From positions 1 through 47,770 of IMG/VR virus record IMGVR_UViG_3300002461_000080: DNA of 47,770 bases; one strand, 5' to 3'. Under the pieces are notes generated by a model. It searched no databases. It had not been told where the DNA came from and saw nothing but the letters and a program-made list of their open reading frames with translations. This DNA is from a virus. Below, piece after piece: positions 9,872 to 34,289 of this stretch (its first letter is position 1; every line of letters starts with the position of its first letter). A program made the position numbers and the translations under genes.

Positions 9872-9906
9872 CGTTCCCCCCAACAAAGGGAACGGGCCGG
9901 CCGGCT

Positions 9907-13303: not shown

Positions 13304-14113
13304 TTAGAGGCCGACGTAGTAGCCGACGTTGATACGGTTCAGCACGGCAGCCCCCGCCGCCGGCATCGTGAATGTGGTGTTGGTGTTGGCGACGAGTGAC
13401 TTGAGCGGGTTCGCGAGCTGCATGTCGACGTCGATCTGCGTGCCGCCGGCAGCCATCGCATTGCCCACCGACCACACCGGACTCCCCGGCAGGTTCGCGG
13501 ACGTGTGGAGCAGGGTCGCCGTGCCCGCGAGCGCGGCCGTCGCGTTCCGCATCATGTTCAGATACGTGATGTAGTGGAACAGGCCGACGCCAGCGGCCGG
13601 CAGCGTCGCCGTTGCGCCCGTGTTGGCTGCGGCCGTCACCGTCACCCATAGGACGGTCGGCAGCGGCTTACTGTAGGCGATGATCCGCGCGCCGCTCGCC
13701 CTGAGCGCGACCGTGATGTTCCCCGACGTGAAGGCTGAGACGCGCACACGCACGCGCTTGTAACCGCTGCATCCGACGAAATAGCTGGCGGAGTGCGTCG
13801 TCGTGATCGTGACGCTGTTGACGAACTGCTCGCTCGCCGCTGTTGCTGCAACGAGACTGCCGACCGCCAGCGCCGGCAGCGGGAAGTAGTTGGTTCCGTC
13901 GACCGTTCCCTCGAACACGTAGGTCAGCGATCCGGCGCCAGTGCGAACGTCGATCGCGACTGTCGAGCAGCCGTCCACGTCCGCCAGGACCTCGGCGTTC
14001 GCCGCCGCGAGGAGGTTGGTGAACGTCCGGCTGTCCGTGTTGACTTCGCCGTTGACGCGATCGGGGAACAGGCCCCGGATCTCATTCCCTCGAGCATCGT
14101 AGAGTGTCGGCAT
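13304..14113 (-). CDS. Hypothetical tail or fibre-associated protein.
   Basis: 269 aa. The start overlaps the collagen-fibre stop (TGATG), and the composition is Thr/Ala/Val-rich and beta-type. Confidence 0.6.
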   Translation of the reverse strand: MPTLYDARGNEIRGLFPDRVNGEVNTDSRTFTNLLAAANAEVLADVDGCSTVAIDVRTGAGSLTYVFEGTVDGTNYFPLPALAVGSLVAATAASEQFVNSVTITTTHSASYFVGCSGYKRVRVRVSAFTSGNITVALRASGARIIAYSKPLPTVLWVTVTAAANTGATATLPAAGVGLFHYITYLNMMRNATAALAGTATLLHTSANLPGSPVWSVGNAMAAGGTQIDVDMQLANPLKSLVANTNTTFTMPAAGAAVLNRINVGYYVGL

Positions 14114-15096
14114 CAGAGCACCATGTAATCGAGCACGAGGTTCCCCCCGAGCGGCTGCTCGCCCTCGAGGAGCAACGTGAAGTTACCAGAACCCGGCACG
14201 GCCCGCATGCACAGGTCATCTTCCATCGGCGCGTCGACGTCCGTCTCTGCGACGCCCGCCAGCCACGGCAGCACCTTCGAGGCTCCCGTGACGCTGCCCG
14301 CCGTGACCACGACCGAATGCGACCGCTTCGCCGGCCAGCCGAGCGCCACGACGACGCGCGTCGCGGAGCCGCCACCGCCGCCCGCCGGTCCCTGCGGCCC
14401 GGTCGCGCCCGGCGGTCCCGGTGGCCCCGGCACGCCGACGCCGTCGCGGCCCGGCGGACCCTGGAGGCCCTGAGCGCCTGCCGGTCCCTGCGGGCCGGTG
14501 GCGCCCGGCGCCCCCTGCGCTCCCGGAGGTCCGGCTGGTCCGGCCATACCGGCGGCGCCTGGAGGCCCAGGAGCGCCCTGCGGCCCGGCTGGACCCTGCG
14601 GCCCGGTCGAGCCCGTGGCGCCAGGAGTGCCCGCGACGCCTGGAGGCCCCTGCGGACCCACCGGGCCGGCCGCTCCGACGGGTCCGGGCGCCCCAGGGTT
14701 CCCCGGTGGCCCCTGCGGGCCGGTCGCTCCTGCGGGTCCCTGTGAGCCCTGGACGCCCGGCGGACCCTGCGGCCCGGTGGCGCCCGGAGGCCCCATCATG
14801 CCCGGCGTGCCCGCCGGTCCCTGTGCGCCCGTCGCGCCGGCGGGTCCCTGAGCGCCGAACGCGCCCGGCGGTCCGCCCGGTCCCGGAGGCCCGGCGGGTC
14901 CCGGCGGTCCCGGAGGTCCGGGCGCTCCGCTGCCGCCGCCGCTCGAGCTGCTGCCGCCGAGGCCGATCGCCGGCGTGCCGTCCTGCCGTGCGAGCCCGAC
15001 GTTGATGCGATTCGAGACGCGCGTAACCTTCCCGCGCGCCGACGGGTCGACCGTCGTGCGATTGAGTCCGCGCTGCGCCTTCGAGAACTTCGGCAT
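14113..15096 (-). CDS. Collagen-like tail fibre protein.
   Basis: 327 aa. It has about 55 uninterrupted G-X-Y triplets, one interruption (GVGV), then about 6 more. Non-collagen N- and C-terminal domains flank the repeat. The gene occupies the gp17 position after the internal proteins. Confidence 0.75.
14377..14928 (-). repeat. Coding 9-bp-periodic G-X-Y (collagen) repeat tract.
   Basis: GGN-CCN-rich triplet periodicity is visible in the DNA and translates to [13 protein letters not shown]... Confidence 0.85.
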
Positions 15097-18000
15097 CTAC
15101 TTCGGCGCTCCGGAGATGAGTGCCATCGGGTTCGACGTCTTGCCCTCGACGAGCGCCGCGAACCCTTCGATCGTCCGCTTCACCTGTCCCGCAGGATAGT
15201 GGAACACGGCGCCGGCCGTGTCATTGAGTGACCGCCAGAACGCCGCGTCAGGCTCACCCTGTTCGACCTGCTGCACGAGCCGCGACGCGCTCGAGAACGC
15301 CCGCGCGCCGGCCGGTCCCTCGTAGCCGTAGCCGTTGCCGACGACGCCGGCGATCTCGCGCGTGATGACCATCGTGCCCAGGATGTAGGCAGCCTGCTCC
15401 CGCGCCAGCCGCACCGCGAGGTCCTCGTCGTCCTCGTCGCTGCCCGGCTTGATCGCCTCTCGCAGCGCCAGCCCCATCAGCGCCGGCACGGTGTAGAGCA
15501 GGAGGTAGTCGACCATCAGCCGGCCGATGTCCCCCGGCTTGCGGAAGTTGGTGCGCCGCGTCGACTCGGCCGCGAGGTTGTAGGTGACGTTGAAGAACGA
15601 ATAGAAATTCGTCCACAGCCGCAGGAGCGGCCCGCCGCGCTGGATGCCGGCGAGGTCCTTGACCTGCCCGCCGCCCTGCGAGTCGAGCACCGCCTGATCG
15701 GCCTGCGCGATCGCCGCCGCCTCGTCGACGCCACTCTCGAGCGCCTTCTCATACTGGCCGAGCCACGTCGGCAGGTCCGCGATGAGCTGCGCCTGCTGGA
15801 TGAGGAAGAAATAGCTATCCGCGACACCCTGCCGCGTCGCCTTGCCGCCGCTCACGCCCTTGAGCACGTCGTCGATCCAGCCGGAGAACGTGCCCGTGTT
15901 GACGCCGACGGCGTTGCGGATCTCGTTGATCTCGCGCTGCTGCGTCCGGCCGCGCTCGCGCATGAACGTCGACCGCTCCCGGACCCATGCCGCCGTGTTC
16001 TCCATCGTTGCCGCGTCGCGGAGCCAGCGCGCCATGCCGCGCGCTACCCACTTCGGCCCGATGCGGACCATCGACTGCGTGAGGCCGATCGGCTGGAGCA
16101 GCGCCGTCGTGATGTTCCAACCGAGCCCGGCGATCGTCGCGCCCTGCCGGAGATGGTTGATTGCGCGCTCGAACGCGCCGGTCGCCGGCACGTCCCCGAT
16201 CGCGATGTCGCGGACGCCGTTCTTGAGCTGCTTGTAGACGACGTCGCCGTGCGTCTCGTAGATCGCCGCCTGCACCGCCGGATGCCCCAGGACGCGGCCC
16301 ACGTCGATGAGCGTCTCGTGGTGGCTCAGGTCGTGGATGACCTGCCGAACGTGCTCGAACATCACACCGAAGTCCCGGCGGACCGGCAGCTTCACGCCGT
16401 CGACGCGCGCCTTCGTGTGCCCGCGCTTCGTCGTGCTCTGCGCGTAGGCAGCCGCTCGAGCCAGCCCCGCCTCCTCGACGTCGACGAACGCGCCGGCCTT
16501 CGCGCTCCGCCGCTCGTCATACTTGAGCGGGAAGTAGCCGCCAGCGAACTCCCCGAACGGCGTGCGGATCGTTGCCGCTTCGACCTTCTCCGGCGCGATG
16601 CCGTAGACGCGCTCCTGCTTCGCGGCGATGTCCGACCAATACCCGTTGATCATGTCGAGCACGCCCTGAACGAACTGCCAGTCGCTTTCCGACAGCGTCG
16701 CCAGGATGCCGGCGACCTGCTCGTCGGTCCACCGCTCGGAGCGCCGGATGCGGTCCCGGTTGCCCTCGTTGCCCCAATTCAGGGCGATGCCGATGCGCTC
16801 CATCTTCGATAGTGACCGGCCCACCGACGGCGCCAGCTCCTTCGTGTAAAGCGCCCGCTTGTCTCGAGCCGTCGGGAACGCCGCGTCGACGAGCGCCTGG
16901 AACTTCGCCGCCGCCTGCGCGTTCATCTCCGCCTCTCGAGCGCCGGCTTCGTTCAGCGGCCGGACGACCGCCTCCCACATGGCGCCGCCGTCCTCGAACC
17001 CGTCCATCTCGCGCACGAGGCTGGCGATCTTCCGGTGGCTGGCGATGAAATCCTGCACGCCGCGCATGCGCTCCGTCGACGGCCGGCGATCCATCTCACC
17101 GGCGCTCGCCGGCTTGCCCTTGAAGTTGGCGCGGATCGCCGTGGCGATCTCGTCGGCCGTGGCATCCAGCTCCCGCTGCGCCGCCGCCTTGAGTAGCCGG
17201 TTCTTGAGCCGCGCCAGATGCACCAGCGCCTTGAGGCCGTCCGTCACGCCGACGAGCTGCTCCACCGTGAGGTTCTGGTAGTTGGTTCGCAGCGCCTCGT
17301 TGAGCAGCTCCTCCGGCATGTCCGTCGGGAGCCCCTGCGACTCGAGCCCTTCGATGAACTTCACCAGCGACGCGCGGCGGTCGAGCGCCTGCTGGCTTAC
17401 CCGCGCGAACTCGAACCGATCGAGGATGCCGTCGATCTGGTCGAGATAGTTGTGCCCGGCGAGGCCGATGCTCGAGCGCGTCGTCGGCCGCGCCAGTCCC
17501 CGCGCGAACTTCACCCGCGCCTCGACGTCCTCGAGCACGCGCTGAGCTTCGCGGTAGAGCGCGAGGTTGAGCAGCTCCTTCCGCTTCGACTCGATCGCGC
17601 CGTCGTAGTCGGTGCGCGCGGCGCGCTCGAGCGCCTGCTGCGCGGCCCGGCGGCTGGCGTGCCAGAACACATCCGGCTTGACCTGCCGGATCTTCATGCT
17701 GGCGATCCGCGCCTTTGCCGCCGCGACGACGTCCTCGTGTCGCGGCAGCGCCGCGTTGATGACGCGCGCCCCGCCTCGAGCCTTGCGCCGCAGCTCCGAC
17801 AGCTCGGCCTGGAGCTGGTCGATCTCGAGCTGCTTGGCGCCCTCCGCGATCGCGACTCGCAGCTTCGTCTCCGCCTCGAGGAACCGGCGCTCGTAGTCCC
17901 GCTCCCGGCGCTCGGCTGCGAGCTGCCGGCCCGCCGCCTGCTCGAACGGCCGCACCGTGGCCCTCAGCTTCGCCAGGGCTCGCAGCTCGGCCCGGACGAT

Positions 18001-21000
18001 GACGTCCCGGTCCTCATTCGAGATAGCGGCCTGAGCGGCATTCTGGAGCGTCCCATCGAGCAACAGGCTCCCGTGCTCGGCCAGCATCCGCTGTTCGGTC
18101 CGCGCCCGGATGACCTCCCGCGCCGGCGCCGCCTCCGTAACCGCCTGGAGCAGCGCGTCGCCAGAGTCGTAGCCGAACATGCTGGCGACGAACTCCGGGT
18201 CGAGCCCGCCGTCGGCCGCGTAGATGTAGGGCCGTGGCAGCCGCTTGAGGTAGTCGAGCCCGTAGCGCGCGACGAGGATCGCCCGCGACAGCCGCAGCGG
18301 CTCCGTCTCGAGGCCCTCAACCATCGGGCTCCCGTCGGGCAGCGTCCCCCGCTGCATCGCCGCCAGCGCCCGGTAGACCGGCTCCGCGTAGACCTCCGCC
18401 GCGACCTCCGCCTCGATCTCGTTCCGCCGCGCCTTCCACTGCTTCGTCTGCTCGCGCTGAACCTCCGCCATCAGCCGGCGATCGAGCTGCTCGCGGGCCG
18501 TCCGGTTCGCCGCCTGGATGGTCCCCTCGTAGAGCGCGAACTCCTCCGGCGTCATGCCCGCCGACTCCGCCGTCGTGAACATCGGCGGCGCGTTGCGGAG
18601 GTCGTTGGCCTGTGCGATCGCCACGTCGCCGGCGACCATGCGGTCGACCACCGCCCGCACTTCCGGCGTGAACTGCACGCCGAGCCGGCTGAGCGAACGG
18701 TAGACGCCGAGAATCCACGCGCGGAACCTCGAGAACGCGCTCTGCAACCGGAGCGACGGCGCCTTGCCTTCGCCCAGGTATGCCTCGAACGCCGCCGCAA
18801 ACTTCTCGTGCTGGTCGACGCCGATGCCGGCGCGGCTGTCAACCTCGAACCACTCGAGCAGCGTCGCGTAGTCCGCGATGAGCGCCTGCTGCTGCGCGGT
18901 CCGAGTCGCCGGGTCGCTCGCCTTTACCTTGTCGACGAGGTCGCCCATCAGCTCGAGGAACAGGTGCCCCGACTCGTGGAGGAACGTCGTCAGGTCCGCA
19001 CGCTCGAACAGGCTGATGCTGACCTGCCGGCCAGGACCGAACCGGATCGCCCCGCGACGGCCGCGCTCCTCGGTCTGGTAGAGGATGCGCGGGTCGTTCG
19101 GGTCGAACGTGCCCACGTTGCCGACGGCGCTCTTGACCTGCTCCGGCTTGAACACGATGTAGTGAACCGTGTCCGCGTCCATGCCGGCCATCGGCGTGCC
19201 CATCTTCTTCTGGCTGCCGAACTTCGTGTCGACCGTCGTGTCGACGATGCCGTCGTAGCCGAGCCGCTCGATCGTCCGGCGGATGATCTCGCCGCGAATC
19301 AGGTTCCCCTGGTCGTCGGTCGCGTAGCCGAGCTGCTCGCTCGTGAGCAGGATCTCGATCGCCCCTCGGAGCGGGATGCCGTCGTAGTCGCGCGCCCGTT
19401 CCATGATGCGGTCGACGACGTCGCCCAGGTCGGAGAACTCGACGTCGTTCGCGAGGTCGACCTCCGCCTGGAGCGCCTCGAGGAACTCGAGCACGCCGCC
19501 GCCCTCGGTCGGGTCGTAGCCCTCGCGGTCGCTCAGCTCTTGGACGATCTGCTCGTCGTCCATGCCCTCCGCCCGCAGCTCCTCGACGTCGGCCGGCTCG
19601 AACGACGTGATCGGCTCGTCGTAGACGCGCGTGTAGTCGAGCAGTGACTCGTTGCGCCCGCCGAGCCGCGCCGGCCGCTCCATCTTGAGGTAGACGGGCA
19701 TCGTCATCCCGCCATGCTTCACGCCGAGCCGGTCGAGCGCCAGCAACCGCACCGCCGCGAACCGATCGTCTGGCGCCAGCGTCCGGTCCTGCCGCGTGAG
19801 GTCCTGCTTCGCCCGCGCGATCTCCTCCGGCCGCTCCGCGACGATCGCGTCGAGCTGCTCGATGATGTCCTCGTCGTCCATCTCGAGCGCGCTCTCGATG
19901 CGCTCCACTTCGCGCGACAGCTTGCTTGCGAGGTCCGGCCCCGCCTCGGTGGCGTAGTTGGCGCCGACGTCGCGCGGGTTGTTCGAGAAGTAGATGCCGG
20001 CGCCCAGGTCCGACTCGACGTTCGCCCGCGTGGGATCGAACGTGTCGAAGTCGCCCGTCGTGCCGTGGTAGACCACCAGCGGCTCGCCGTCCTCGTCGAC
20101 GATCTGGCTTTCCCCGAACCACTTCCGGAGGTTCTGCTCGCGCGCCGTCGAGCCGTGCGCTTCGTTCGACTGCTCGGTGACGGCCTGCACGAAATCGCGG
20201 CGCTCCTTGCCCGTGACCGGCTTGCCGTTCTTGTGCGTGAGCTGAACGATCGAGTCGTCGAACACGACCATGTTGCGGAGCTTCTTCCGCTTGCCCTGGT
20301 CGCGGCTGTTGGCGTCCTCGTATTTCAGCCCCGGCACGCCGGCAGCCAGGAGCTTGAGGCTCGCCAGCCGCGCCGCATCCTCCGCCGCGCGCTCCTCGAG
20401 CACTGCGAGCTGCACGAACTCGTCGTAGTCGGCGCCGAACTGCGCCCGCACCCGCTCCTCGCTCGAGCCGGATGCGATGCCGCCGCCCGTCGGCTGCGCC
20501 GGATGCTTCGCCCGCAGCTCCTCCGCGCGCTCGCGGAGCGGCTTGCGGATGCGCTCCTCCTCGTCGGCCTGGATGATGCGATAGGCCATCTCGCCGTTCG
20601 CCGGCTGCGACATGCTGCCGCGCTCGAGCGTGTAAGCCTTGAACGCGCTCTTGAGCTGACGCGGCCCGTTGTCCTTCGGCCCCAGGTAGCCGCGCCGCTT
20701 GAGGCCCTCCCGCACGAGGTCCTGCACCGGCTTCGGCTGCTTGTCGATCGGCGCGTCCCAATCGAGCATCTTCGCGACCTGCGCGTCGTCGATCTCGATC
20801 TGGTAGACCCCGCCCTTCACCGGGTCCCATCGCACGGACGCGGCGCCCGGCTTCGCCAGCTCGTCGCGGAGCCGCTTCGTCGCCTCGATGCCCTCGGTCC
20901 ACTCCTCGATCGCGAGGTCCTTCGCGTGTTGATCGAGCCACTCGAGCACGTAAGCCTGGAACCCGTCCTCGCCGCGCCCGAGCAGCTCGAGCGGATTCGC

Positions 21001-24000
21001 CAGGAGGTTCTCCGCCAGCGACGCGCGGACGTTCTCGATGTCGCTCTCCGATGCCCGGCGCGAGTAGTCGAACCCGTTCTTGTCATTCAGTCGCATGCTG
21101 CCGAGACGCATCTCGACCATCTGCGGCTCACCGCTCAGGGTGTCGAAGTAGTGCCCGGCGATCGCCGGGTCCTCCGCGAAGTAGAGGCCCCAACCGTAGG
21201 CAGCCGCGCCCTCGCCCGTGCCGATGTGCTCGACCGAGAAGCGATCGAAGTCGTGCGGGCTCCCGTGATAGAGCGGCTGGTCGAACTCGCGCACGCCGGC
21301 GCGGAACGCCCGGAGCTGCTCGCGCGACGGCCCGACACTGCGCGGCTGGCTCGGCCCGTCCGCGTAGACGGTCGGCTCGCGATACATGCCCTCGCGCGTC
21401 GTGAAGTCCTTCGCCCGGCCCCGGTTGTCGACGAACCCGAACCGCCGATAGAAGGTCCGCAGCCGCGACGCGCTCGAGGTCCGCTCCGTGTTCGGCGTAT
21501 ACGGCCAGCCCTTTTCCGCCGGCGACAGCTCGAGCCGGATGCCGCTGCGATCCGCCCACCGCGTCAGCTCGCGCATGACCTTCGAGCCGAGCCCCTGCCG
21601 AGCGGCGCCGCGACGGATGAGGATCGTCTCGAGCTTCACGACGTTCTCGCGGAGCGGGTCCACCCGCAGCTCGAATGACACCAGCTCGTCGCCGGCGGCG
21701 CGCTTCACCGTGTCCGCGAATGCGTCGGCCGTCTGCTGCGGGTCGGCCGTCTCCTCCGCCGGCAGACTTTCGCGGTCGATGACCACCAGCGCCGGGAACC
21801 GCTTCGCGCCGAGCAGCTTGAGCGCGTCGAACCGATGCGCGCCCTCGAGGATGTAAGGCCCCTGCTTGTCGACGACCACGATGAGCGGGTTCAGGACGTT
21901 GTTCTCGCGGATCGCCTCCGCCAGAGCCCGCGTGCGCTGCTCCTCACTCGTCGAGTAGAACGACGGCGCGTTCTCGCTGAACAGCGACATCGGCACGTCG
22001 CGGATGCCGGCCAGGACCTCGTAGTCCTCGAGCGACGCGGCGATCGACGACGTGTTCGGGACCTCCGCCTGGACGACGCGGCCGTCGACGACGTCATCCG
22101 CGACCGGATACTCTGCATCGAACGCCGTCGGCGCCGGCGTCACGTCCGGCTGGTTGTAGATGACCGCGTCGTCGCGATCGAACGCGCCGCTGTTGTTGTT
22201 CGCGTGCTTGACCTGCGTCGGTCGGAACGCGATGTATTGAACCTCGCCGTCCTCCGCGTCGCGGAACACAGCGCCGTCGTAGCCCATCGCCTCGTAGCGC
22301 GCGATGTCCTTCGGTCCCCACCCGATCCAGTCGTCGAAGTTGTCGATCTCGACCGGGTTCTCGATGCGCGCGTAGAGCGGCAGCACGATCACGCCGTCGT
22401 AGGGGTCCGGCACGTCCTGTGCCTTCGTCGCCTTCGGCGCCCGCTCCGCCCCGAACTCGAGCGCGACGTCGCTCAGGTTGGTGAGGTAGATCGGCAGCGT
22501 CGGGTCGAACGCATCGAACTCCACCGCCGTCCCGTGGAACAGCGTCATCGGGTTCCCGGCGCCGTCGACGACGACACTGTTGCCGAACCACCGGCGGAAC
22601 GCCGGCGAGTCGATCGGGTTCCACGGCTGGAACAGCGTCGTCTGGAAACCCTTGCGCTGCTCGACCTCGCTCGTGAGCCGGAACTCGTCCTCGACGTCCG
22701 ACATCTTCGGCGTCGGCCGCTCCTCCTCGCGCACGTCGCCCACGTCGCCAGGGAGTCGCGGCTGCGCCTCGCCGGTGTCGAGAAGGTCCGCCTTCGTCGT
22801 GAGCTGCTCGGCCGCGCCGGGCTCCTCGAGCTGGTCGAACAACGACTGCGCGAAGTCCGCCACGTTGAACGACGTGTCGACCGGGCCGTCGGGCTCGAGG
22901 ATGTCCCGCTCCATGTCGTCGACGTCGAGCAGGTCGACAGCCTGCCGGTCGACGTCGTTCCACCAGTCGCGCGAGAAGTCGATGCCGAGCCCCTTGAGGT
23001 CGCTCGCATCGGGAACCGCGCCGAGCCCTTCCGGGATGCCGTTCAGCCGGACGTCGTCGAGAAACGCGACGAGGTCCTCGATGTCCTGCAACCACGGCCA
23101 GCGGCCTTCCGCCTGGAGGTCTTGCAGCATGACGTCGAGCCCGAGCCCGCCGCGCTGCTCCTGCCGGATCTCCCACTTACCATCGATCTTCTTCCGGACG
23201 TTGACGAGCTTGCGCGGCTTGACGACGAGCACGCCCGGCACGCCGCCGACCTTCCCGAAGATCGTGCCCTCGCGGAGCCGCGCCATCTCGCCGGCCTGCC
23301 CGCGTTCGCTCTCGTAGATGCCGCCCTTCGCGGCGATCGCCTTGAGCAGTTGGACCGGGCTCTCCTCGTTCTGGATGCCCTTGATGTCGTCGAAGATGTC
23401 GAGCCGGTAGTCGAACTCGGCGCGGAACTTCCGCTCGTCGAGCGCCGGGTCTAGTGAACGCGCCGCGTCGAGCGCGTCCGCGTAGAGGCCGAGCCGCTCC
23501 GCGTTCGCATACGGTTCCAGCGGCCCGGCGGCGAGAACGTCTCCGTCTGCTCCGCCTCCTTCGCCGCGCGGCGGAGCGCCAGCTTCGCCGGCATCCCTGC
23601 CAGCACGCGCCGCCTGAGCTTCTCGAGATCCACCGGCATCGGTCCCCCCATCCTCCCGCGCGGGAAGGTTTCTGTCAACAACACGCCCGCCGTTGTCGGT
23701 CAGGACGCGGAACCCGTCCGGGCCGGCAATGCCGAACGTCTGACCCTTGCGCGGCTGGTAGTCGACCGCGTCGGCGCCGATGACCGGCGTGAACCGCCCG
23801 GCCCGGTCGAAGTAGCCGAACGCCTCGCCGCGCGCCTTCATGCCCTCGAGCCGGGACATCGCCTCGAAGGACGCGCCCGACTCGCCGCTGGCGTTGACCT
23901 CGAGCCCCGGTCCCTGGTCCCCTTCGCCCAGGACCGGCTCGATCGTCGCGCCGGCGGATGCCGCCTCGAGCGCCGCCATGCCGGGAACCTCGTCCCCGAA

Positions 24001-26028
24001 CGCCGGCGCCGCTTCACCCTCAGCCGGTGCGAGCGGGAGCGCCCGAGACTCCGCCGTTGAGGTCGCCCCGCTCCCAGCTCCTACGGGGCCGGCAGCCGCC
24101 TCCGCCGGCGTCCCGCTCGCAGCCCGAGCCTTCGGACGCTCGAGCGCCGGACGGTCGATCGACAGCCCCAGGTCGGCCAGCATCGAGCGCGGGTCCACGC
24201 CGGCGCGCTCGGCCAGGGAACCGAACGTCGACTCGTAGAGGTCCGCGTAGCTCTCCGCCGTGCTGCGCTCGACGCCTGCGCCCTCGAGCTGCGTCAGGAT
24301 GTCGCCCCGGACCTGCTGCGCCGGCGTGAGCGCCGCGTCGACCGTGGCCTGCTCCTGCGCCGCCGCCTCCGCCTCGAGCTGCGCCTTGAACTCGCGCGCT
24401 TCTCGAGCGTTCATCTCGCCCGGCGCCAGCCGCAGCTCCTCAGCGAAGAACCGATTGTGTTCGGTCGCCGCCAGCGTCACGGCGTAGCGCGCCGTCGGAA
24501 TCGCGAGGTCCTCGCCGGTCGCAAGCGCCCGCTCGAGCGCCTCACTCGAGCCGATGACGTCCCGCGCGATCTCGGCCGGGTCGACGCCCTGCGACTGCCA
24601 ATACTGGACCCACGCCTCCGCCGGCGCGTAGATGGTCCCGATCGGGCCGTCCTTCGTCGCGCGCTCGAGGAACGCCTGCGCCGCCTCCGGCGCTCGCTTG
24701 ATGGTTGCGGACGCGGACGCTTGCCCGCCGAGCGCCTTGAAGAACTGCGCCGTCGCCTCGCCCTGCTGGATCTGCCGCTGCGCTCGAGCGGCGCCCATCG
24801 CCGGGCCGGCGCCCGACAGGAGCCCGAACCCCTCGATCGCGCCGATGCCCTCGTTGACGAGGTCCTCCGCGATGTCGCCGCCGGTGCGCGTCGGAATCGA
24901 CTGGTCGGATGCGGCCTTCGCCAGCTCGCCGGCCATGATGGTGATGCCGCGCTGCGCGACCTCGGTCGCCGTCTCGACGGTGAGCGTCGTCCCGTAGGAG
25001 CGGACCGCCTCCGCCAGCGCCGCGCGCACGGTCGGCTGCCGGAGCGCCCGCTTCACTGCCGCTCGAGCGCCGACCGACGTCAGCTTGTCGAGCCCCGGAA
25101 TCGTCTTGGCGATCGCCTCGAACCCGACCGCCTCGAACCCTGCCGCCATCGCGCCGGCCGACAGCGCCGCCACCCGCGCGATCGCCGGGTCGAGCGTCTG
25201 CCCCGTCTCGTCCTTGAACGCCAGGAACTCGTCGAGCGCCAGCCCCGACTCGATTACAAAACCGAACTTCGCCGCCCCGTAGAGCGCGCCGGCCCTCGCG
25301 CCATACGGCGCTGCCGCCAAAGCGCCCGGAATCGCCCCCACGCCGCCCGCCACAGCGCCCACGCCGGCGCCCACGGCTCCCGTAGTGGCGGCGCCGGCGA
25401 CGCCGTAGGCGCCCGCGTAGAGGCTCGCGCCGAACAGGTTCGGGAGCTGCTGCGCGCCGCCGGTGACGGCCTTCTTGAACCAGCTCGAGCCGGTCCCCAG
25501 GGCTCCGCCGTCGACCATGTGGAACCGATACGCCTCGAGCTGGTCCTGCTCGGCCCTGGTCAGCTCCCGGAACAGGCTCTCGTGGCGGAGCTGCGCGAAC
25601 CGGACCTGATTGATGCCCTGCGAGAACGCCCGGCCCGGCGCCGACACCAGCCACTCGAGCGCGCCGAGCTGCTCCATGTCGTCGGCCGCGACCTGCGCGT
25701 TCATTGGGTCGCTTGCCCACTCGGCCAGGGCCGGCGTCTCCGCGAACATCGCCTCGTATGGCGTGCGGCCGTTGTCCGCCTCGAGCTTCACCCGATCGAA
25801 GTTGGCTTCGACGAGACGGGCCGGCAGCCCCGTCTCCTTCGACAGCTTCATCGCTTCGGCCGCGCGCTCCGGCGCCACCTTGTCGCGCTCGAGCATCGCC
25901 GCCCGGAGCCGCTGCTCGCGGCCGTCGTGGAGCCGCGAGACGGCTGCCTCGAACGGGTCCTGCTGCGGCCCCTGCGCCTGCTCGTCGTCGAGCGCGCCGA
26001 GCGCGTCGTCGTAGATGTTGCCGGCCAT
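15097..26028 (-). CDS. Giant polyvalent internal virion / ejection protein in the gp16 position, 3643 aa.
   Basis: A single uninterrupted ORF of 10,932 nt. Motifs seen are FRRWFGNSVVVDGAGNPMTLFHGT, LRKWFGESQIVDEDGEPLVVYHGT and LYHGSPHDFDRF..GWGLYFA (ART-like); PYILEGAHRFDALKLLG (ParB/Srx-like); RQGLGSKVMREL..FYRRFGF (GNAT-like); and FLHESGHLFLE (HExxH). Confidence 0.85.
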   Translation of the reverse strand: MAGNIYDDALGALDDEQAQGPQQDPFEAAVSRLHDGREQRLRAAMLERDKVAPERAAEAMKLSKETGLPARLVEANFDRVKLEADNGRTPYEAMFAETPALAEWASDPMNAQVAADDMEQLGALEWLVSAPGRAFSQGINQVRFAQLRHESLFRELTRAEQDQLEAYRFHMVDGGALGTGSSWFKKAVTGGAQQLPNLFGASLYAGAYGVAGAATTGAVGAGVGAVAGGVGAIPGALAAAPYGARAGALYGAAKFGFVIESGLALDEFLAFKDETGQTLDPAIARVAALSAGAMAAGFEAVGFEAIAKTIPGLDKLTSVGARAAVKRALRQPTVRAALAEAVRSYGTTLTVETATEVAQRGITIMAGELAKAASDQSIPTRTGGDIAEDLVNEGIGAIEGFGLLSGAGPAMGAARAQRQIQQGEATAQFFKALGGQASASATIKRAPEAAQAFLERATKDGPIGTIYAPAEAWVQYWQSQGVDPAEIARDVIGSSEALERALATGEDLAIPTARYAVTLAATEHNRFFAEELRLAPGEMNAREAREFKAQLEAEAAAQEQATVDAALTPAQQVRGDILTQLEGAGVERSTAESYADLYESTFGSLAERAGVDPRSMLADLGLSIDRPALERPKARAASGTPAEAAAGPVGAGSGATSTAESRALPLAPAEGEAAPAFGDEVPGMAALEAASAGATIEPVLGEGDQGPGLEVNASGESGASFEAMSRLEGMKARGEAFGYFDRAGRFTPVIGADAVDYQPRKGQTFGIAGPDGFRVLTDNGGRVVDRNLPAREDGGTDAGGSREAQAARAGRDAGEAGAPPRGEGGGADGDVLAAGPLEPYANAERLGLYADALDAARSLDPALDERKFRAEFDYRLDIFDDIKGIQNEESPVQLLKAIAAKGGIYESERGQAGEMARLREGTIFGKVGGVPGVLVVKPRKLVNVRKKIDGKWEIRQEQRGGLGLDVMLQDLQAEGRWPWLQDIEDLVAFLDDVRLNGIPEGLGAVPDASDLKGLGIDFSRDWWNDVDRQAVDLLDVDDMERDILEPDGPVDTSFNVADFAQSLFDQLEEPGAAEQLTTKADLLDTGEAQPRLPGDVGDVREEERPTPKMSDVEDEFRLTSEVEQRKGFQTTLFQPWNPIDSPAFRRWFGNSVVVDGAGNPMTLFHGTAVEFDAFDPTLPIYLTNLSDVALEFGAERAPKATKAQDVPDPYDGVIVLPLYARIENPVEIDNFDDWIGWGPKDIARYEAMGYDGAVFRDAEDGEVQYIAFRPTQVKHANNNSGAFDRDDAVIYNQPDVTPAPTAFDAEYPVADDVVDGRVVQAEVPNTSSIAASLEDYEVLAGIRDVPMSLFSENAPSFYSTSEEQRTRALAEAIRENNVLNPLIVVVDKQGPYILEGAHRFDALKLLGAKRFPALVVIDRESLPAEETADPQQTADAFADTVKRAAGDELVSFELRVDPLRENVVKLETILIRRGAARQGLGSKVMRELTRWADRSGIRLELSPAEKGWPYTPNTERTSSASRLRTFYRRFGFVDNRGRAKDFTTREGMYREPTVYADGPSQPRSVGPSREQLRAFRAGVREFDQPLYHGSPHDFDRFSVEHIGTGEGAAAYGWGLYFAEDPAIAGHYFDTLSGEPQMVEMRLGSMRLNDKNGFDYSRRASESDIENVRASLAENLLANPLELLGRGEDGFQAYVLEWLDQHAKDLAIEEWTEGIEATKRLRDELAKPGAASVRWDPVKGGVYQIEIDDAQVAKMLDWDAPIDKQPKPVQDLVREGLKRRGYLGPKDNGPRQLKSAFKAYTLERGSMSQPANGEMAYRIIQADEEERIRKPLRERAEELRAKHPAQPTGGGIASGSSEERVRAQFGADYDEFVQLAVLEERAAEDAARLASLKLLAAGVPGLKYEDANSRDQGKRKKLRNMVVFDDSIVQLTHKNGKPVTGKERRDFVQAVTEQSNEAHGSTAREQNLRKWFGESQIVDEDGEPLVVYHGTTGDFDTFDPTRANVESDLGAGIYFSNNPRDVGANYATEAGPDLASKLSREVERIESALEMDDEDIIEQLDAIVAERPEEIARAKQDLTRQDRTLAPDDRFAAVRLLALDRLGVKHGGMTMPVYLKMERPARLGGRNESLLDYTRVYDEPITSFEPADVEELRAEGMDDEQIVQELSDREGYDPTEGGGVLEFLEALQAEVDLANDVEFSDLGDVVDRIMERARDYDGIPLRGAIEILLTSEQLGYATDDQGNLIRGEIIRRTIERLGYDGIVDTTVDTKFGSQKKMGTPMAGMDADTVHYIVFKPEQVKSAVGNVGTFDPNDPRILYQTEERGRRGAIRFGPGRQVSISLFERADLTTFLHESGHLFLELMGDLVDKVKASDPATRTAQQQALIADYATLLEWFEVDSRAGIGVDQHEKFAAAFEAYLGEGKAPSLRLQSAFSRFRAWILGVYRSLSRLGVQFTPEVRAVVDRMVAGDVAIAQANDLRNAPPMFTTAESAGMTPEEFALYEGTIQAANRTAREQLDRRLMAEVQREQTKQWKARRNEIEAEVAAEVYAEPVYRALAAMQRGTLPDGSPMVEGLETEPLRLSRAILVARYGLDYLKRLPRPYIYAADGGLDPEFVASMFGYDSGDALLQAVTEAAPAREVIRARTEQRMLAEHGSLLLDGTLQNAAQAAISNEDRDVIVRAELRALAKLRATVRPFEQAAGRQLAAERRERDYERRFLEAETKLRVAIAEGAKQLEIDQLQAELSELRRKARGGARVINAALPRHEDVVAAAKARIASMKIRQVKPDVFWHASRRAAQQALERAARTDYDGAIESKRKELLNLALYREAQRVLEDVEARVKFARGLARPTTRSSIGLAGHNYLDQIDGILDRFEFARVSQQALDRRASLVKFIEGLESQGLPTDMPEELLNEALRTNYQNLTVEQLVGVTDGLKALVHLARLKNRLLKAAAQRELDATADEIATAIRANFKGKPASAGEMDRRPSTERMRGVQDFIASHRKIASLVREMDGFEDGGAMWEAVVRPLNEAGAREAEMNAQAAAKFQALVDAAFPTARDKRALYTKELAPSVGRSLSKMERIGIALNWGNEGNRDRIRRSERWTDEQVAGILATLSESDWQFVQGVLDMINGYWSDIAAKQERVYGIAPEKVEAATIRTPFGEFAGGYFPLKYDERRSAKAGAFVDVEEAGLARAAAYAQSTTKRGHTKARVDGVKLPVRRDFGVMFEHVRQVIHDLSHHETLIDVGRVLGHPAVQAAIYETHGDVVYKQLKNGVRDIAIGDVPATGAFERAINHLRQGATIAGLGWNITTALLQPIGLTQSMVRIGPKWVARGMARWLRDAATMENTAAWVRERSTFMRERGRTQQREINEIRNAVGVNTGTFSGWIDDVLKGVSGGKATRQGVADSYFFLIQQAQLIADLPTWLGQYEKALESGVDEAAAIAQADQAVLDSQGGGQVKDLAGIQRGGPLLRLWTNFYSFFNVTYNLAAESTRRTNFRKPGDIGRLMVDYLLLYTVPALMGLALREAIKPGSDEDDEDLAVRLAREQAAYILGTMVITREIAGVVGNGYGYEGPAGARAFSSASRLVQQVEQGEPDAAFWRSLNDTAGAVFHYPAGQVKRTIEGFAALVEGKTSNPMALISGAPK
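23649..23682 (-). promoter_or_regulatory. Intragenic copy of the GTTGTTGACAGAAACC motif, followed by the perfect palindrome TCCCGCGCGGGA.
   Basis: The 12-mer is at 23667..23678 in minus orientation and encodes VVDRNL of the giant protein. The 12-bp palindrome is at 23654..23665. Confidence 0.4.
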
Positions 26029-26037
26029 GAGCCCCCG

Positions 26038-27828
26038 CTACTGACGGAACCGCGCTTCGATGAACGTCTCGAGCACCGTGGCGTCGTTGACTGGAATCCG
26101 TCGCGACCTGAGAAGCTGCTCGATGCGCGTGCGGTCCGTCGACGGCACGTCCTCGATCGTCAGCTCGAACGGCCGCGCCTGCCGCTCCGTGTCGAAGAAC
26201 GGCGCCGACGAGAACAGCCCGCCCCAGGTCCCTTCGCGCCGCACCGTGATCTGCGACGACAGGATGCCGTCGAGCATCTCACGAACCTCGTCGTTCGTCG
26301 CCGTCTTGCCCGTCTCGCCGCCGCTCAGCGCCCGCACGCGCCGGTCGAGCATGCCCCGGAGCTGCGCGACCGCCTTCGCCTCCGGCGTGCCCTCCTTCGG
26401 GTTCGGGTCGAGCCCGTAAGCGACGAGCCGGTCGTTGAATACCTGCGTCTTGGACTGGAACTCGTCGACGATGAGCTTCGTCCGTGACTTCTCGGCGTCG
26501 GCCGCTGCGCCGATCGCGTGCTCGCGGAGCGACCGCTGGAGGTTCGCCATCTGCTGAAAGTCCGACTCGCTCAGCTTGCCCTTGTAGCGGAGCAGGTTCT
26601 CGGTCAGGAATCCCTTGTTGGTCGACACCGCCCGGTTCATCAGCGCGTAGTAAGTCTCGAGGTCCGTTTCGACCGGCTCACCCTTCGCGATGTTCCGCGC
26701 GTAGCTGCGGATGCCGGCGAGGTCCTTCGAGTCGAGCGACGCCCACACCGCCGGGTCGATCGCGTTGACGTCGCCGCCGCTCTGCTCGACGACGGCGTAG
26801 ACGCCCCGGAGCGTCGTCTCCTGCCGCTCGCGCTCCTCACGCTCGCGCACCAGCGCCTCGTGCTCGAGCCGCTGCGTCACGCTGTCCCGGACGTCCGGGT
26901 CCTCGATCGCCTTCGCCTTGTTGCGCTGCTCGGTGAGCGTCCCACCCTCCGCGACGATCTTGTCGACGAGCGTCTGCGACTGCTTGCGGATGGTCCCCTC
27001 GCGGAGCGCCTTCTCGACGCGCGTGATCGATTCGCCGTTGATCTGCTCTTTCGCCTCCTCGAAGTAGGCCCGCGCCGCGCCCGGCTGCCCCTGCGAGATG
27101 AGCGACTCGATGACGCCGATATGGCCCTTCGTGCGGACGGCGTCGACCTGCGCCTCGATCTGCTCCGGCCCGAGGCCGAGACGCGGCCCGCTCCGCTGCA
27201 CGGCGTCGACGGCCTTCGCCAGCTCGAACCCCGCGCGTCGCGGGTCGGTGGCATTCGCCGCCATGTCGCTCAGGCTGTTGTCGACGAACGCTTTCAGCTC
27301 GCCCGCCTCATACGCCTGCATCTCGCCCAGGACGTGACGGCGGAGCGTCAGGTCGATCTGCGCTGAGCGGTTGCCCTTCACCCGCTGGAACGCGCGCCGC
27401 TGCCGCTCGGTCCCGAGCCCGCTCTCGATCTCGCCGGCGACCTTCTCGAACTCGCCGGCGACCGACTCCGGCAGCCCGAACGAGTCGCGGCCCTTCGCCG
27501 CCAGCGCGCCGCCCTGCGGGTCGTAGAGCCGCTTGCGCTCCCACGCGCTGAGCTTGTTGTCGGCGTCCATCAGCGCGACCTCGTCGGCCCGCTGCTGCTC
27601 CGCCATCGCGATCTGCCCCAGGACGGCGCCGGCTCGAGCGACGGTGTCCCCGAACCCGGCGATCGCGTTGCCCGTGACCTGCGCGTTCCGGCCGCGCGTG
27701 AGCGCCAGCCCCGCCTCCGCCTCGAACACGCCGGCGCCACGGCTCGCGGCCGTCTCTGCGGCCGTCCGGCGGACGCCAGGGAGCGCCGTCGGTGCGACCT
27801 GCCTCGTGAGCGTAGGAACTCTCGGCAT
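26038..27828 (-). CDS. Internal virion / ejection protein in the gp15 position.
   Basis: 596 aa and largely helical. It lies between the gp14-position and gp16-position genes. The call rests on synteny only. Confidence 0.5.
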   Translation of the reverse strand: MPRVPTLTRQVAPTALPGVRRTAAETAASRGAGVFEAEAGLALTRGRNAQVTGNAIAGFGDTVARAGAVLGQIAMAEQQRADEVALMDADNKLSAWERKRLYDPQGGALAAKGRDSFGLPESVAGEFEKVAGEIESGLGTERQRRAFQRVKGNRSAQIDLTLRRHVLGEMQAYEAGELKAFVDNSLSDMAANATDPRRAGFELAKAVDAVQRSGPRLGLGPEQIEAQVDAVRTKGHIGVIESLISQGQPGAARAYFEEAKEQINGESITRVEKALREGTIRKQSQTLVDKIVAEGGTLTEQRNKAKAIEDPDVRDSVTQRLEHEALVREREERERQETTLRGVYAVVEQSGGDVNAIDPAVWASLDSKDLAGIRSYARNIAKGEPVETDLETYYALMNRAVSTNKGFLTENLLRYKGKLSESDFQQMANLQRSLREHAIGAAADAEKSRTKLIVDEFQSKTQVFNDRLVAYGLDPNPKEGTPEAKAVAQLRGMLDRRVRALSGGETGKTATNDEVREMLDGILSSQITVRREGTWGGLFSSAPFFDTERQARPFELTIEDVPSTDRTRIEQLLRSRRIPVNDATVLETFIEARFRQ

Positions 27829-27832: not shown

Positions 27833-28456
27833 CTACCTGTTCCGGAATCCGTAGGACATCTGGAGCAGCGACGTCGTGCCGCCGATCAACGTGCCCGCCA
27901 TGCCGAAGTAGTTGGCAGTCGCCGCCGCGCGTCCCGACTCGCGCGTGCCCTGAGCCCCGAGCCGCGCCGCCGCCTCCGCGTTGAGCCCTTCCTTCCGCAT
28001 GATCTCGCCGCGCTTGCGGTAGTCCTCCGCCTGCACCTTGTAGCCCCACGCCTCGCGGCCGGCGTTCGTGCGGATCTGGAGCGCGTCCATCTCGCCCAGG
28101 AACGCGGCGTCGGCTTGGACGTCGACGGCGCTGCCGTAGCTGACGTCGATGTTGCCGCCCGCGAACCCGGCGCGCTGCTCTCCGATCGTCTTGCGGACCT
28201 GCGTGCGGAACCGGCTCTCTGCCTCCGCGCCGCGATCGACGGCGTCGGTCGATTGCAGCTCCGCAACCTGCGCGTTGTAGTCCGCCAGCTCCGCCTGTGA
28301 TTCGGATGCTTCACGCGCGGCCGTGCCCGCCTTCTCCTGAGCAGCCGCCGCCAAGTTGCCAGCCTTCTTCTGCTGCTTGGCGGCGCGATACTGCCCGTAG
28401 GCCGTGACAGCCGTGCCGAGCGCCGAGATGCCGAGTGCCCACCCTGCCAGACCCAT
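27833..28456 (-). CDS. Internal virion / ejection protein in the gp14 position, with an N-terminal membrane anchor.
   Basis: 207 aa. The N-terminus is MGLAGWALGISALGTAVTAYGQY, followed by an Ala/Gln/Glu-rich helical region. It directly follows the nozzle gene, as in T7. Confidence 0.5.
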   Translation of the reverse strand: MGLAGWALGISALGTAVTAYGQYRAAKQQKKAGNLAAAAQEKAGTAAREASESQAELADYNAQVAELQSTDAVDRGAEAESRFRTQVRKTIGEQRAGFAGGNIDVSYGSAVDVQADAAFLGEMDALQIRTNAGREAWGYKVQAEDYRKRGEIMRKEGLNAEAAARLGAQGTRESGRAAATANYFGMAGTLIGGTTSLLQMSYGFRNR

Positions 28457-33600: not shown

Positions 33601-34289
33601 ATGAGGATGCGACCGCTGGCGTTCGGGCTCGTCGCGCCGATCGTTTTCCACATGTCCTGTGACGTCTGCGGCGCGTGGCGGAGTCGGATGTAGATCCGGT
33701 CCCACCCGCGATTGGTGACAGCCGTCACACCGTCCTCGGTCAGTGAGTGCCGCACCGTGCGCCCGCCACCGTTGCGGCACGCAAACCCGAATCCGCCGAG
33801 ATGCCTCGAGGCCGTCGGGCAGAAGAATTGATGCGCGTTGCCGCCAAGGTTCGGCCCGCCGCCCTTCGCCGCCTCGAACCCGTCCACCCATCGCCGCGCG
33901 CCCATCGCGACCGGCGCCGGCTCGCCAGGGATCTCCGTCTCGTTGTCGTCGCTGCCCGCGTAGGTGAAGGTGAAGCACCAGCGATACGTGTGCGTGTCAC
34001 CGAACAGGAGCGGGATGCCGAACCAGCCGCCGCTCTTGCGCGTGAAGCTGGCGACGTTCTTCGGGTAGTTGAACGTGCTCGCGAAGTAGCCCGACGTGAT
34101 GCACGGCGGATCGAACCGCTGCGTCGGGCTCGGAATCACGAGCGCCGCACCGTAGTCGATCGCCGCTTGGTCGGGCGAGATGCCGATGATCCAGCCGCCA
34201 CCCAGGTCCGCCTGAGCCTTCGCCGCCTCGTAGGCGGTCTTGTCGGTCAGGTGGACGTAGCACTGGAGGAAGTGAGTCCGGTTCGCCAT
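30699..34289 (-). CDS. Fusion protein: a roughly 900-aa N-terminal receptor-binding-like region, a Pro-rich linker and a C-terminal T7 gp11-like adaptor domain.
   Basis: 1196 aa. The last 262 aa (about 30702..31487) read VINMALSRIGISKQLTS...RAILRDFPWPFA...ALFRNALAWRHAHALAP, which resembles the gp11 pattern VNDILASIGEPPVS...QSRGWTFN recalled from memory. The Pro-rich linker is PVEPIPPQRPPIVPPVPVPPGGPGPTPPG. Confidence 0.6.
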   Translation of the reverse strand: MANRTHFLQCYVHLTDKTAYEAAKAQADLGGGWIIGISPDQAAIDYGAALVIPSPTQRFDPPCITSGYFASTFNYPKNVASFTRKSGGWFGIPLLFGDTHTYRWCFTFTYAGSDDNETEIPGEPAPVAMGARRWVDGFEAAKGGGPNLGGNAHQFFCPTASRHLGGFGFACRNGGGRTVRHSLTEDGVTAVTNRGWDRIYIRLRHAPQTSQDMWKTIGATSPNASGRILINPSRQLEYQNVDSGSTRNAIGTGKTLDLNRWYKLDILYRMGAAPDSFLKVYVNGVLDFTINGGSLPAGTGITQVQNVSFTEVGDGHTSNHRGAWDLDDWIGSPLPAGGANPELFPARDWNAGSKVVGLRAKAAAASNTGNWAGPGGADANDWRFITQRCVVSTSTQFLSSASASQRIAVVTEADRRIDLDPLNRGANGISVGVNARNATAAPQDSLVGFKLPSAAEVTKTPPVISGADITQADGFLTHAGGSIEPVSPMAGSEMSYQCNSSVSTKEVASLIAQVECIGIFHPEDYVPQPGDPAGFTTGLTQWTQTPAHQPYADSPYAVYGQPTPSLVVIHTRTYVGNGTSQQLAFRVPPTWIFVRNTATHTGFWWMCGMPASSHGFDVSTRGSLISRAFIDPNFTEAAEDQQTEQTIVELTGNLAASNASGVTYNLLAWCDPGMRFSEVGALWETAGGDVARDTSFNNSEFTPELFYGYRQITGNATTAGLYSKGAGNALQGVNLLNVAVIAAGLEFATGKLVIAPTSGLYVSAAVQFTFIVFRRDDTSGDANIGKVLQIASWIGDGTASRTIGLAPVTGRRPMWAMVTGSNGVGRQRDASHTSTNSMNMAALSQVTDGITAGAVDSISVGSALNTSTVTFEALVFPGCDAVAVNNGWGGNCEHIPVEPIPPQRPPIVPPVPVPPGGPGPTPPGTTPLTPTGTITQCPTESTIVINMALSRIGISKQLTSTTLNTEVSPEATVARLHYDEDVRAILRDFPWPFATRYEVLTQVAGPAYENDLVQTWVSTVAYPKNSVVRVSGIDYYALGNAAAGTVVTDPAAWSTTPVEEVNGDWLYAYRAPTLMAMARRVVNNTDKTRRMWDTAPPDFRVGSDAVGALIYSNEPNAELEYTVLDNCVARQGDALFRNALAWRHAHALAPALTRDEKITASCWSQYERLLRDARTSAGQEKQDPRESDPDWISGRN

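Follow-up and report, generated by a model that had tools for sequence, protein, structure and literature searches.

The window analyzed here is a viral DNA of 47,770 nucleotides (IMG/VR record IMGVR_UViG_3300002461_000080, positions 1 to 47,770), and its largest gene is a giant open reading frame (ORF) on the minus strand. The 3,643 amino acid (aa) protein encoded by this ORF is a member of the Bbp10 family, which includes Bbp10 of phage BPP-1, as indicated by the similarity of its C-terminal module, by an N-terminal module that contains an LPD22 domain, and by the position of the gene. Like its relatives, the protein has conserved N- and C-terminal ends that enclose a hypervariable cargo.

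The giant gene and its relatives

15097..26028, minus strand: giant ORF, 3,643 aa, with an ATG start; Bbp10-family protein of the gp16 slot

An earlier note on this DNA had described the ORF as uninterrupted and as about 23% of the genome, and both statements were confirmed. Translation of positions 15097-26028 (minus strand) gives zero internal stops, and the chance probability of an open run this long is 3.5e-35 at the compositional stop frequency of 0.0215 per codon. The GC content at third codon positions (GC3), calculated in blocks of 300 codons, is 0.92-0.95 throughout, except for a value of 0.83 at aa 601-900, where an Ala/Gly-rich linker is located; this near uniformity indicates that a single frame is coding over the entire length. 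Furthermore, a 94-bp exact direct repeat occurs at both ends of the window (1-94 and 47677-47770), which identifies the window as a complete phage genome of ~47.7 kb, either circularly assembled or terminally redundant, of which the giant ORF makes up 22.9%. The genome GC content of 69% fits an alphaproteobacterial or myxobacterial host.

The giant protein matches phrog_9880 with 1,244 bits. When its last 1,344 aa were used in tblastn searches, the bbp10 gene of BPP-1 was matched with 36.9% identity over 99% of the module, and BPP-1 together with the Caulobacter phages JessA and SR18 gave 37-40% identity over 92-99% of it. In total, this region matches 50 phage records (27-40% identity over ~90-99% of the query), including BPP-1 and its siblings, Caulobacter JessA, SR18, BL94 and RapA, Xanthomonas Cp2-like phages, Pseudomonas AF, Carin1, OANV1, cyanophages and vibriophages. 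An alignment of the C-terminal module (A2) contains 51 invariant columns. At the nucleotide level, megablast of the giant ORF against the phage collection gave no match.

The family is large. A search of IMG/VR recovered 42 loci, 31 of them with complete ORFs of 1,998-3,772 aa. When 1.84 billion cluster representatives (50% identity clusters) were screened with a profile of the last 903 aa, 13,045 clusters matched at E<=1e-3 and 8,175 at E<=1e-30. Among the best 150 of the 13,045, the module is at the extreme C-terminus in all, and the full-length proteins range from ~1,600 to 4,165 aa. A giant single ORF is thus the norm in this family, and the one in the window is not the largest. The earlier note had proposed searching IMG/VR for conservation of the fusion, and 31 complete giant ORFs were found there; its description of the fusion as unusual is not supported, since the family has at least 13,045 clusters and relatives carry ADP-ribosyltransferase (ART), PBECR nuclease, GNAT, Zeta-toxin, GGDEF, RadC and other domains in the same position. 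The particular domain set of the window is ordinary within the Bbp10 family, and the class itself is already known (PMC4819975, PMC5512222, and the PHROG and Pfam families). Related C-terminal modules were also seen in genomes and metagenome-assembled genomes (MAGs; L056-L061), i.e., in Xanthobacteraceae (on a 45-kb contig), Myxococcota (two copies), Gallionella, Polynucleobacter, and a Chloroflexi MAG.

Could the ORF be an assembly or annotation artifact that fuses normally separate genes? This explanation draws on the closest metagenomic relative, L003, which has an in-frame TAG, and on another relative, L004, in which gene calling yields two genes (903 aa and 1,376 aa). However, the stop in L003 is a single CAG-to-TAG change on a contig with 1.9x coverage, and the alignment stays in frame beyond it. 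The earlier note had taken splitting by stops in homologous phages as a sign of such an artifact; instead, single ORFs are found in the 31 complete IMG/VR cases and in cultured phages such as BPP-1 and Carin1, and the best 150 cluster representatives are all single proteins of up to 4,165 aa with the C-terminal module at the end. These single-ORF relatives, together with the uniform GC3, led to the rejection of the artifact explanation, which is regarded as extremely improbable.

The TAG of L003, the closest relative in ENA, is located at L003:5686-5688 within the giant ORF, where the window has CAG. In L004, which derives from JGI, a frameshifted ART remnant (L004:9538-10000) separates the two ORFs. 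The stop and the frameshift may represent real decay of the cargo or assembly errors.

Conserved ends, variable cargo and the junctions between them

The features of the giant protein, in order from its N-terminus, are the following:

24109..26028, minus strand: conserved N-terminal module, aa 1-640, composed of LPD22, a Gly/Ala-rich hydrophobic stretch and a helical region
25621..25905, minus strand: LPD22 domain, aa 42-136 (PF18834, E 2.3e-18, 66.7 bits versus a cut-off of 28.6)
25126..25461, minus strand: Gly/Ala-rich hydrophobic stretch, aa 190-301 (Kyte-Doolittle peaks at 209-241 and 283-301)
23449..24108, minus strand: low-complexity linker rich in Ala, Gly, Glu, Arg and Pro, aa 641-860 (from composition; GC3 0.83; no Pfam match)
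22627..23448, minus strand: conserved domain plus linear motif ending in TTLFQ, aa 861-1134 (alignment A7, 21 invariant columns; no Pfam match)
22627..22635, minus strand: first L[FY]Q junction (LFQ, aa 1132-1134), where the N-side scaffold meets the cargo; conserved in A7
22180..22566, minus strand: ART-PolyVal copy 1, aa 1155-1283 (PF18760, full-length model, E 2.4e-13, 51.5 bits)
21784..21996, minus strand: ParB/Srx-like domain, aa 1345-1415 (Pfam ParB_N, E 5.8e-6, 26.7 bits versus a cut-off of 26.3)
21430..21657, minus strand: GNAT-like domain, aa 1458-1533 (Acetyltransf_1, 24.4 bits versus a cut-off of 20.7)
20224..21273, minus strand: ART copy 2, aa 1586 to ~1935, a divergent subtype with a helical insert of ~250 aa
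19105..20097, minus strand: ART-PolyVal copy 3, aa 1978-2308 (Pfam, 60.4 bits over 1978-2028 plus 2284-2308)
19075..19083, minus strand: second L[FY]Q junction (LYQ, aa 2316-2318), directly before the C-terminal module
18709..19056, minus strand: zincin-like putative metallopeptidase, aa 2325-2440 (HESGH at 2351-2355; H2407/E2408 on a later helix)
15100..18708, minus strand: all-alpha C-terminal anchor module, aa 2441-3643 (from AlphaFold2 (AF2), BFVD and the cluster search)

The division into ends and middle emerged from segment-wise blastp. The segments of the N-terminal module are kept in most of 46 loci, as well as in alignment A3, and gp32 of Carin1 matches aa 254-630 with 38% identity. 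Within this module, the Gly/Ala-rich stretch at aa 190-301 is possibly membrane-active, and the N-side scaffold terminates with the domain at aa 861-1134. The C-terminal ~1,330 aa are conserved across the loci, while the middle region is not and ranges from <200 aa to ~1,850 aa. In the window, the cargo is ~1,180 aa long (aa ~1135-2318) and is enclosed between TTLFQ (1130-1134) and ILYQ-TEERGRRGAIRFG (2315 onward); it contains, in order, an ART-PolyVal, the ParB/Srx-like domain, the GNAT domain, the divergent ART and the third ART-PolyVal. In two relatives (L007 and L045), the linker ...LTSE..RK..Q.TLFQ leads directly to RGAIRFG and the HExxH domain, without an ART/ParB/GNAT block at the junction.

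The content of the middle region also differs among relatives. Pfam searches of 32 middle regions found ART-PolyVal in 11, DUF7178 in 7, PBECR5 in 7, GNAT in 5, and Zeta toxin, GGDEF and ParB_N in 2 each, along with LPD23, RadC, PBECR1, metallopeptidases and others. Comparison with the closest relative (L005) points to exchange of cassettes, because its scaffold is 72-84% identical to that of the window, whereas the ART segments are only 30-46% identical and the ParB domain is missing.

The cargo domains were examined by running Pfam on the whole giant protein and on ten sub-segments. ART-PolyVal is matched with E 8.8e-41 over the whole protein. The first copy has the motifs HGT (in LFHGT), IYLT and GYDG, as read from the sequence, and the third has VYHGT, GIYFS and GYDG, with a large insert that divides the domain. 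The second copy corresponds at aa 1586-1655 to the N-terminal half of ART-PolyVal, with 29.5 bits, slightly below the cut-off of 31.2; it also matches phrog_4700 (E 2e-6), and its signature LYHGSPH...YGWGLYFA recurs in L005. Thus, HGT or HGS and YF or YL occur in all three copies, and GYDG in copies 1 and 3. The ParB/Srx-like domain includes EGAHRFDA, with the GxHR motif present, and the PDB ParB chain 7o0n_A aligns to aa 1341-1450 (E 3.2e-4); phmmer of the whole giant protein against PDB sequences gave weak ParB matches and nothing else. The GNAT-like domain contains RQGLGSKV, which resembles an acetyl-CoA loop (RxxGxG), and in tblastn its segment aligns to parts of giant phage proteins annotated as DarB-like and PLxRFG. 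No RNA polymerase or muralytic family was found in the Pfam and PHROGs searches of the giant protein. The LPD22, threefold ART-like, ParB/Srx-like and GNAT-like calls of the earlier note are therefore backed by Pfam matches, that for ART copy 2 being the one under its cut-off. So is its designation of the protein as polyvalent, given several disparate biochemical domains in one polypeptide, with LPD22 and ART-PolyVal above the Pfam cut-offs. All five cargo domains (three ARTs, ParB/Srx-like and GNAT) are candidate anti-defense or host-takeover enzymes.

The conserved C-terminal part begins with the zincin-like region. The His, Glu and His residues of HExxH are 97-100% conserved in 34 family members, and the same applies to H2407/E2408 and to many downstream residues. 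The AF2 model of aa 2301-2760, built from family alignments, has a predicted local distance difference test (pLDDT) score of 84 and displays three short strands (at 15-39), the HExxH helix and a later helix bearing a Glu, a secondary structure that fits the zincin core as described by Iyer et al. (PMC5512222). The conserved motif and the modeled topology suggest that aa 2325-2440 form a putative zincin-like metallopeptidase. The earlier note had made the same call; the motif on which it depends (HESGH) is indeed conserved, and the region gave no match to a hidden Markov model (HMM).

As for the rest of the module, the AF2 model of aa 2741-3643 (pLDDT 86, predicted template modeling score 0.83) is nearly all helical and includes hydrophobic helices at 3503-3526 and 3546-3564. 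Foldseek against the PDB found no match; the lowest E value was 0.72 with the aa 2741-3643 model and 0.76 with the aa 2301-2760 model. The modeled C-terminal helical fold appears to have no counterpart among solved structures. The preprint on phage PhiXacm4-11 likewise reported no fold match for gp35, which it equated with Cp2 ORF24, itself a tblastn match of the window protein. In BFVD, Foldseek with the C-terminal model gave 109 matches at E<=1e-3, all pieces of giant proteins of uncultured phages, with labels including 'Large polyvalent protein associated domain', 'PolyVal ADP-ribosyltransferase', 'Nuclease' and 'N-acetyltransferase'.

The L[FY]Q motif, considered in the window protein and in relatives L006-L045 and P0054-P0198, marks both edges of the cargo; its two occurrences in the window protein are the only ones, and both are at the junctions. 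In the window protein and 29 homologues, 47 occurrences were observed versus 22.9 expected, an approximately two-fold enrichment. Furthermore, L[FY]Q is found within 70 aa upstream of HExxH in 47 of 139 independent representatives, compared with a background of 0.035 per window of that size (~5 of 139). The enrichment is about ten-fold at 30-44 aa upstream, the distance seen in 41 of these 47.

Gene neighborhood and proposed role

The genes that surround the giant ORF constitute a podovirus structural module of the epsilon15/BPP-1 type, all on one strand. Pfam and PHROGs matches define the minus-strand order portal (PF12236, E 2e-146), scaffold-like protein, major capsid protein (PF20911, epsilon15 GP7 type, E 2e-128), gp11-like, gp12-like, gp14-like and gp15-slot proteins, giant ORF, and collagen fiber. 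The genes closest to the giant ORF are:

30699..34289, minus strand: 1,196-aa protein with a gp11-like C-terminus (phrog_394 over aa 943-1195, E 8.4e-30)
28461..30698, minus strand: gp12-like tail tube/nozzle protein, 745 aa (phrog_376, E 1.7e-148)
27833..28456, minus strand: gp14-like internal virion protein, 207 aa (phrog_418, E 3.6e-26)
26038..27828, minus strand: gp15-slot protein, 596 aa (phrog_10475, E 4e-61; no Pfam match)
14113..15096, minus strand: collagen-repeat tail fiber, 327 aa (PF01391, E 1.3e-23, and tail-fiber PHROGs)

These matches bear out the T7-like order given in the earlier note, in which gp11-like and gp12-like genes are followed by membrane and helical proteins, the giant ORF and a fiber gene; the match of the 207-aa protein to Pfam T7_gp14 is weak (E 0.0089) and under the family cut-off. 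The order is identical in BPP-1 (Bbp14-13-12-11-10-9, with Bbp10 being 2,052 aa long) and in the Cobetia phage Carin1, which has the 2,854-aa gp32 in the position of the giant ORF. Hardies et al. (2016; PMC4819975) listed Bbp10 as a homologue of IVP-D (T7 gp16) in the epsilon15 subgroup, a connection obtained by HMM-HMM comparison through chained, podovirus-only HMMs, and noted the presence of "domains destined for the cytoplasm" in internal virion proteins, citing the N4 virion RNA polymerase and the H66 gp60 methylase. In the PhiXacm4-11 preprint, gp33, gp34 and gp35 are treated as analogues of T7 gp14, gp15 and gp16, and core density is described above the portal.

On these grounds, the giant protein probably fills the gp16 slot as an internal virion protein of a BPP-1/epsilon15-like podovirus, is ejected along with the DNA and delivers early effectors. 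A few copies would be packaged with the gp14- and gp15-slot proteins on the core next to the portal and would exit via the short tail when the phage infects. The conserved ends may serve packaging, ejection, envelope crossing and possibly membrane insertion, the last by means of the hydrophobic segments at 209-241, 283-301 and 3503-3564. The cargo would then enter the cytoplasm with the leading DNA and could modify host or defense targets before phage gene expression, by NAD-dependent ADP-ribosylation, by acetylation, and by a ParB-type activity on nucleic acids or nucleotides. As a more speculative step, the zincin domain might cut at the L[FY]Q junctions and free the cargo. Polyvalent proteins have been predicted to be injected with the DNA and to be processed by their metallopeptidase domains (PMC5512222), and the giant ORF lies among late/virion structural genes, as expected for such proteins.

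Several results weigh against this proposal. The hhalign comparisons included T7 gp13-16 and epsilon15 gp13-17, both as single sequences, N4 gp50-52, and a 7-member profile of N4-like C-termini. Against the single sequence of T7 gp16, the C-terminal module (A2) gave E 0.1 with a probability of 0.6%, and the N-terminal module (A3) gave E 0.13; against epsilon15 gp17 (E 0.21) there was no detectable similarity, and the other core proteins of T7, epsilon15 and N4 gave nothing significant. When the A2 and A3 profiles were run by hmmsearch against PDB sequences, nothing matched. The connection described by Hardies et al. was thus not reproduced with these single-sequence templates. Similarity to N4 gp50 is only weak, at the HExxH region (E 0.005-0.08). 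The zincin region lacks a Pfam HMM or Foldseek match, ART copy 2 falls short of the Pfam cut-off and shows no evident third catalytic residue, and the L[FY]Q motif may simply be a structural linker motif. In addition, no published evidence was found that any Bbp10-family protein is present in virions or ejected: the mass spectrometry of BPP-1 concerns capsid proteins only, the OANV1 paper is without mass spectrometry, and the proteomics table of PhiXacm4-11 is illegible for gp35. The earlier note had cast the protein as a channel former in the gp16 slot; the slot holds, but no similarity to T7 gp16 was found, either by sequence profile or by fold, so that the case for a gp16-equivalent role is made by gene position and the literature.

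There is a hint that the N4 virion RNA polymerase uses a distantly related scaffold. The HExxH region (aa 2340-2430) aligns with gp50 2223-2314 (L048) at E 0.0048-0.007 against the single sequence and at E 0.077 against the 7-member profile, and the N-terminal hydrophobic region (aa 220-384) aligns with gp50 262-437 at E 0.003. The two matches are collinear but not significant (probability 5-11%), and the C-terminal module does not align elsewhere. The polyvalent survey of Iyer et al. (2017; PMC5512222) took as its point of departure the N4 virion RNA polymerase, an ejected protein, with its HExxH peptidase region, and not only MuF proteins, to which the examples were mostly attached according to the earlier note.

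In a different explanation, the protein is a packaged cargo carrier rather than a channel former, its ends acting only as a signal for head targeting and ejection, comparable to the C-terminal 1,400 aa that N4 gp50 requires for encapsidation, with the conduit built by the gp14- and gp15-slot proteins alone. The lack of similarity to T7 gp16 by profile or fold agrees with this idea, as do the collinear gp50 matches (N-terminal module, E 0.003; HExxH region, E 0.007) and the report that the gp50 region containing the HExxH domain is needed for encapsidation (PMC5512222). However, the N4 similarities do not reach significance, the gene is exactly at the gp16 position with no other large helical protein available for the role, HMM-HMM links between Bbp10 and IVP-D have been reported (PMC4819975), and the C-terminal module has the hydrophobic helices at 3503-3526 and 3546-3564; a pure carrier is accordingly considered rather unlikely. 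Less likely still is an essentially structural protein whose enzyme-like domains are decayed, non-catalytic spacer mass in the capsid core. Such decay might account for the scores of ParB, GNAT and ART copy 2, which are at or slightly under the Pfam thresholds, and for the frameshifted ART remnant between the N and C parts of L004. It does not explain why ART copies 1 and 3, ParB and GNAT retain their key motifs intact, why GC3 and the open frame are kept across 3.5 kb of cargo, or why the cargo has been swapped repeatedly for intact enzymatic domains (e.g., Zeta_toxin, E 3e-39, and ART, E 8e-45), an exchange that argues for selection on enzymatic content and makes the structural explanation improbable.

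A lysin or lysis protein, as the GenBank labels of homologues would have it, is very improbable. The annotations (Caulobacter JessA, BL94 and RapA, OANV1 gp16, and cyanophage records) are all that speaks for it. No muralytic, lysozyme, transglycosylase or peptidoglycan-peptidase family was found at E<=5 in the ten sub-segments, nor in PHROGs, and the N-terminal lytic transglycosylase of T7 gp16 has no equivalent there either (no SLT or lysozyme family at E<=5). The gene is within the structural module and outside a lysis cassette, and L004 has a separate lysozyme and holin downstream. This candidate was rejected because of the absence of a muralytic domain and the structural-module position. 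The preferred reading is an ejected gp16-slot protein. A bolder version of it, which is doubtful as a whole, regards the Bbp10 family as a self-processing delivery scaffold: the cargo would be inserted at a fixed L[FY]Q junction, the zincin would cut after ejection and release the ~1,180-aa multi-enzyme block, and the C-terminal module would be a second solution for envelope crossing, unrelated to gp16.

The homologue labels comprise 'lysis protein', 'lysin' ('lysin containing a beta/gamma crystallin motif') and 'crystallin beta/gamma motif-containing protein' (MK942064, OQ135105, OQ137562, MW805363, PP438424, PP438410 and NC_005357). As no muralytic domain is detectable in the window protein, the lysin labels look unsupported and are probably propagated annotation.

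Some observations on other genes of the window may be added. In the 1,196-aa protein, the gp11-like part occupies the last ~250 aa and is preceded by a 940-aa N-terminal extension with only a weak Laminin_G_3/ConA-like match (E 8e-4); compared with T7 gp11 (196 aa) and BPP-1 Bbp14 (223 aa), this length looks like a fusion with a receptor-binding or decoration function. The gp15-slot protein aligns only to the N-terminal half of phrog_10475 ('endolysin') and, at 596 aa, has no muralytic Pfam domain; the ~720-aa equivalents in BPP-1, Carin1 and PhiXacm4-11 have been described as resembling lysozymes. Among the core proteins of the window phage, no virion-associated peptidoglycan hydrolase was identified. 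Terminase_2 small-subunit matches occur in two minus-strand ORFs, at 44019-44777 (E 1e-16) and 6190-7293 (E 5e-5), the second being the C-terminal part of a 367-aa protein distant from the packaging genes. The minus strand also encodes an MT-A70 methyltransferase (46057-47199), an Mgm101-like annealing protein (8807-9886), an SNF2/ResIII helicase (3536-5644) and a DnaB helicase (346-1812), and the replication/recombination module is syntenic with that of L003.

Comparison with known systems

The closest counterparts of the window protein are BPP-1 Bbp10, Cp2 ORF24/PhiXacm4-11 gp35, the JessA and SR18 proteins, Carin1 gp32 and Octadecabacter OANV1 gp16, which share 31-40% identity over ~1,300 C-terminal residues and the N-terminal LPD22, and whose genes likewise follow the gp14- and gp15-slot genes and precede the fiber gene. 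They belong to the same giant size class (~2,040-2,990 aa), the window protein being longer at 3,643 aa. The main difference is in the cargo, as the window has three ARTs, ParB and GNAT, whereas BPP-1 has only ~175 aa between the conserved parts. Taken alone, the window gene is one more member with its particular cargo, and the interest lies in the family of >13,000 clusters, whose members are routinely misannotated as 'lysin' or 'lysis protein'. With fixed ends, a swappable enzymatic middle and an invariant peptidase motif, the family offers a natural system for learning which host functions are hit in the first seconds of infection, and the same anatomy suits the engineering of protein delivery by podoviruses.

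With T7 gp16, the window protein has in common the operon position, the large size and the mainly helical character, and the neighboring gp14-like protein is recognizably related to its T7 counterpart; it is, however, 2.8 times as long, carries cytoplasmic enzyme domains, and lacks the N-terminal lytic transglycosylase. The resemblance to N4 gp50 is in overall design, for both are podovirus proteins of ~3,500 aa with an enzymatic middle, a HExxH region and a long C-terminal region, and some N4-like polyvalent proteins carry an ART domain as well (PMC5512222). Unlike gp50, the window protein has no RNA polymerase domain in Pfam or PHROGs, and the packaging and ejection of gp50 are what is proposed for the window protein.

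P1 DarB/DdrB and the MuF-linked polyvalent proteins combine several enzymes in one large polypeptide, which is packaged in the head and injected against host defenses, and ParB-like and metallopeptidase themes are common to them and the window protein. They are head-internal proteins of myoviruses and siphoviruses or MuF fusions, while the window protein is built on a gp16-slot scaffold in a podovirus and has no methyltransferase or helicase domain. T4 Alt, which is cited in PMC5512222, is an ART that is delivered with the DNA and acts before phage gene expression. It is a stand-alone protein of ~680 aa from a myovirus and belongs to another ART clade, in contrast to the three ARTs embedded in the structural scaffold of the window protein. 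By analogy, the deployment logic proposed for the window protein would parallel that of T4 Alt, N4 gp50 and the P1 Dar proteins.

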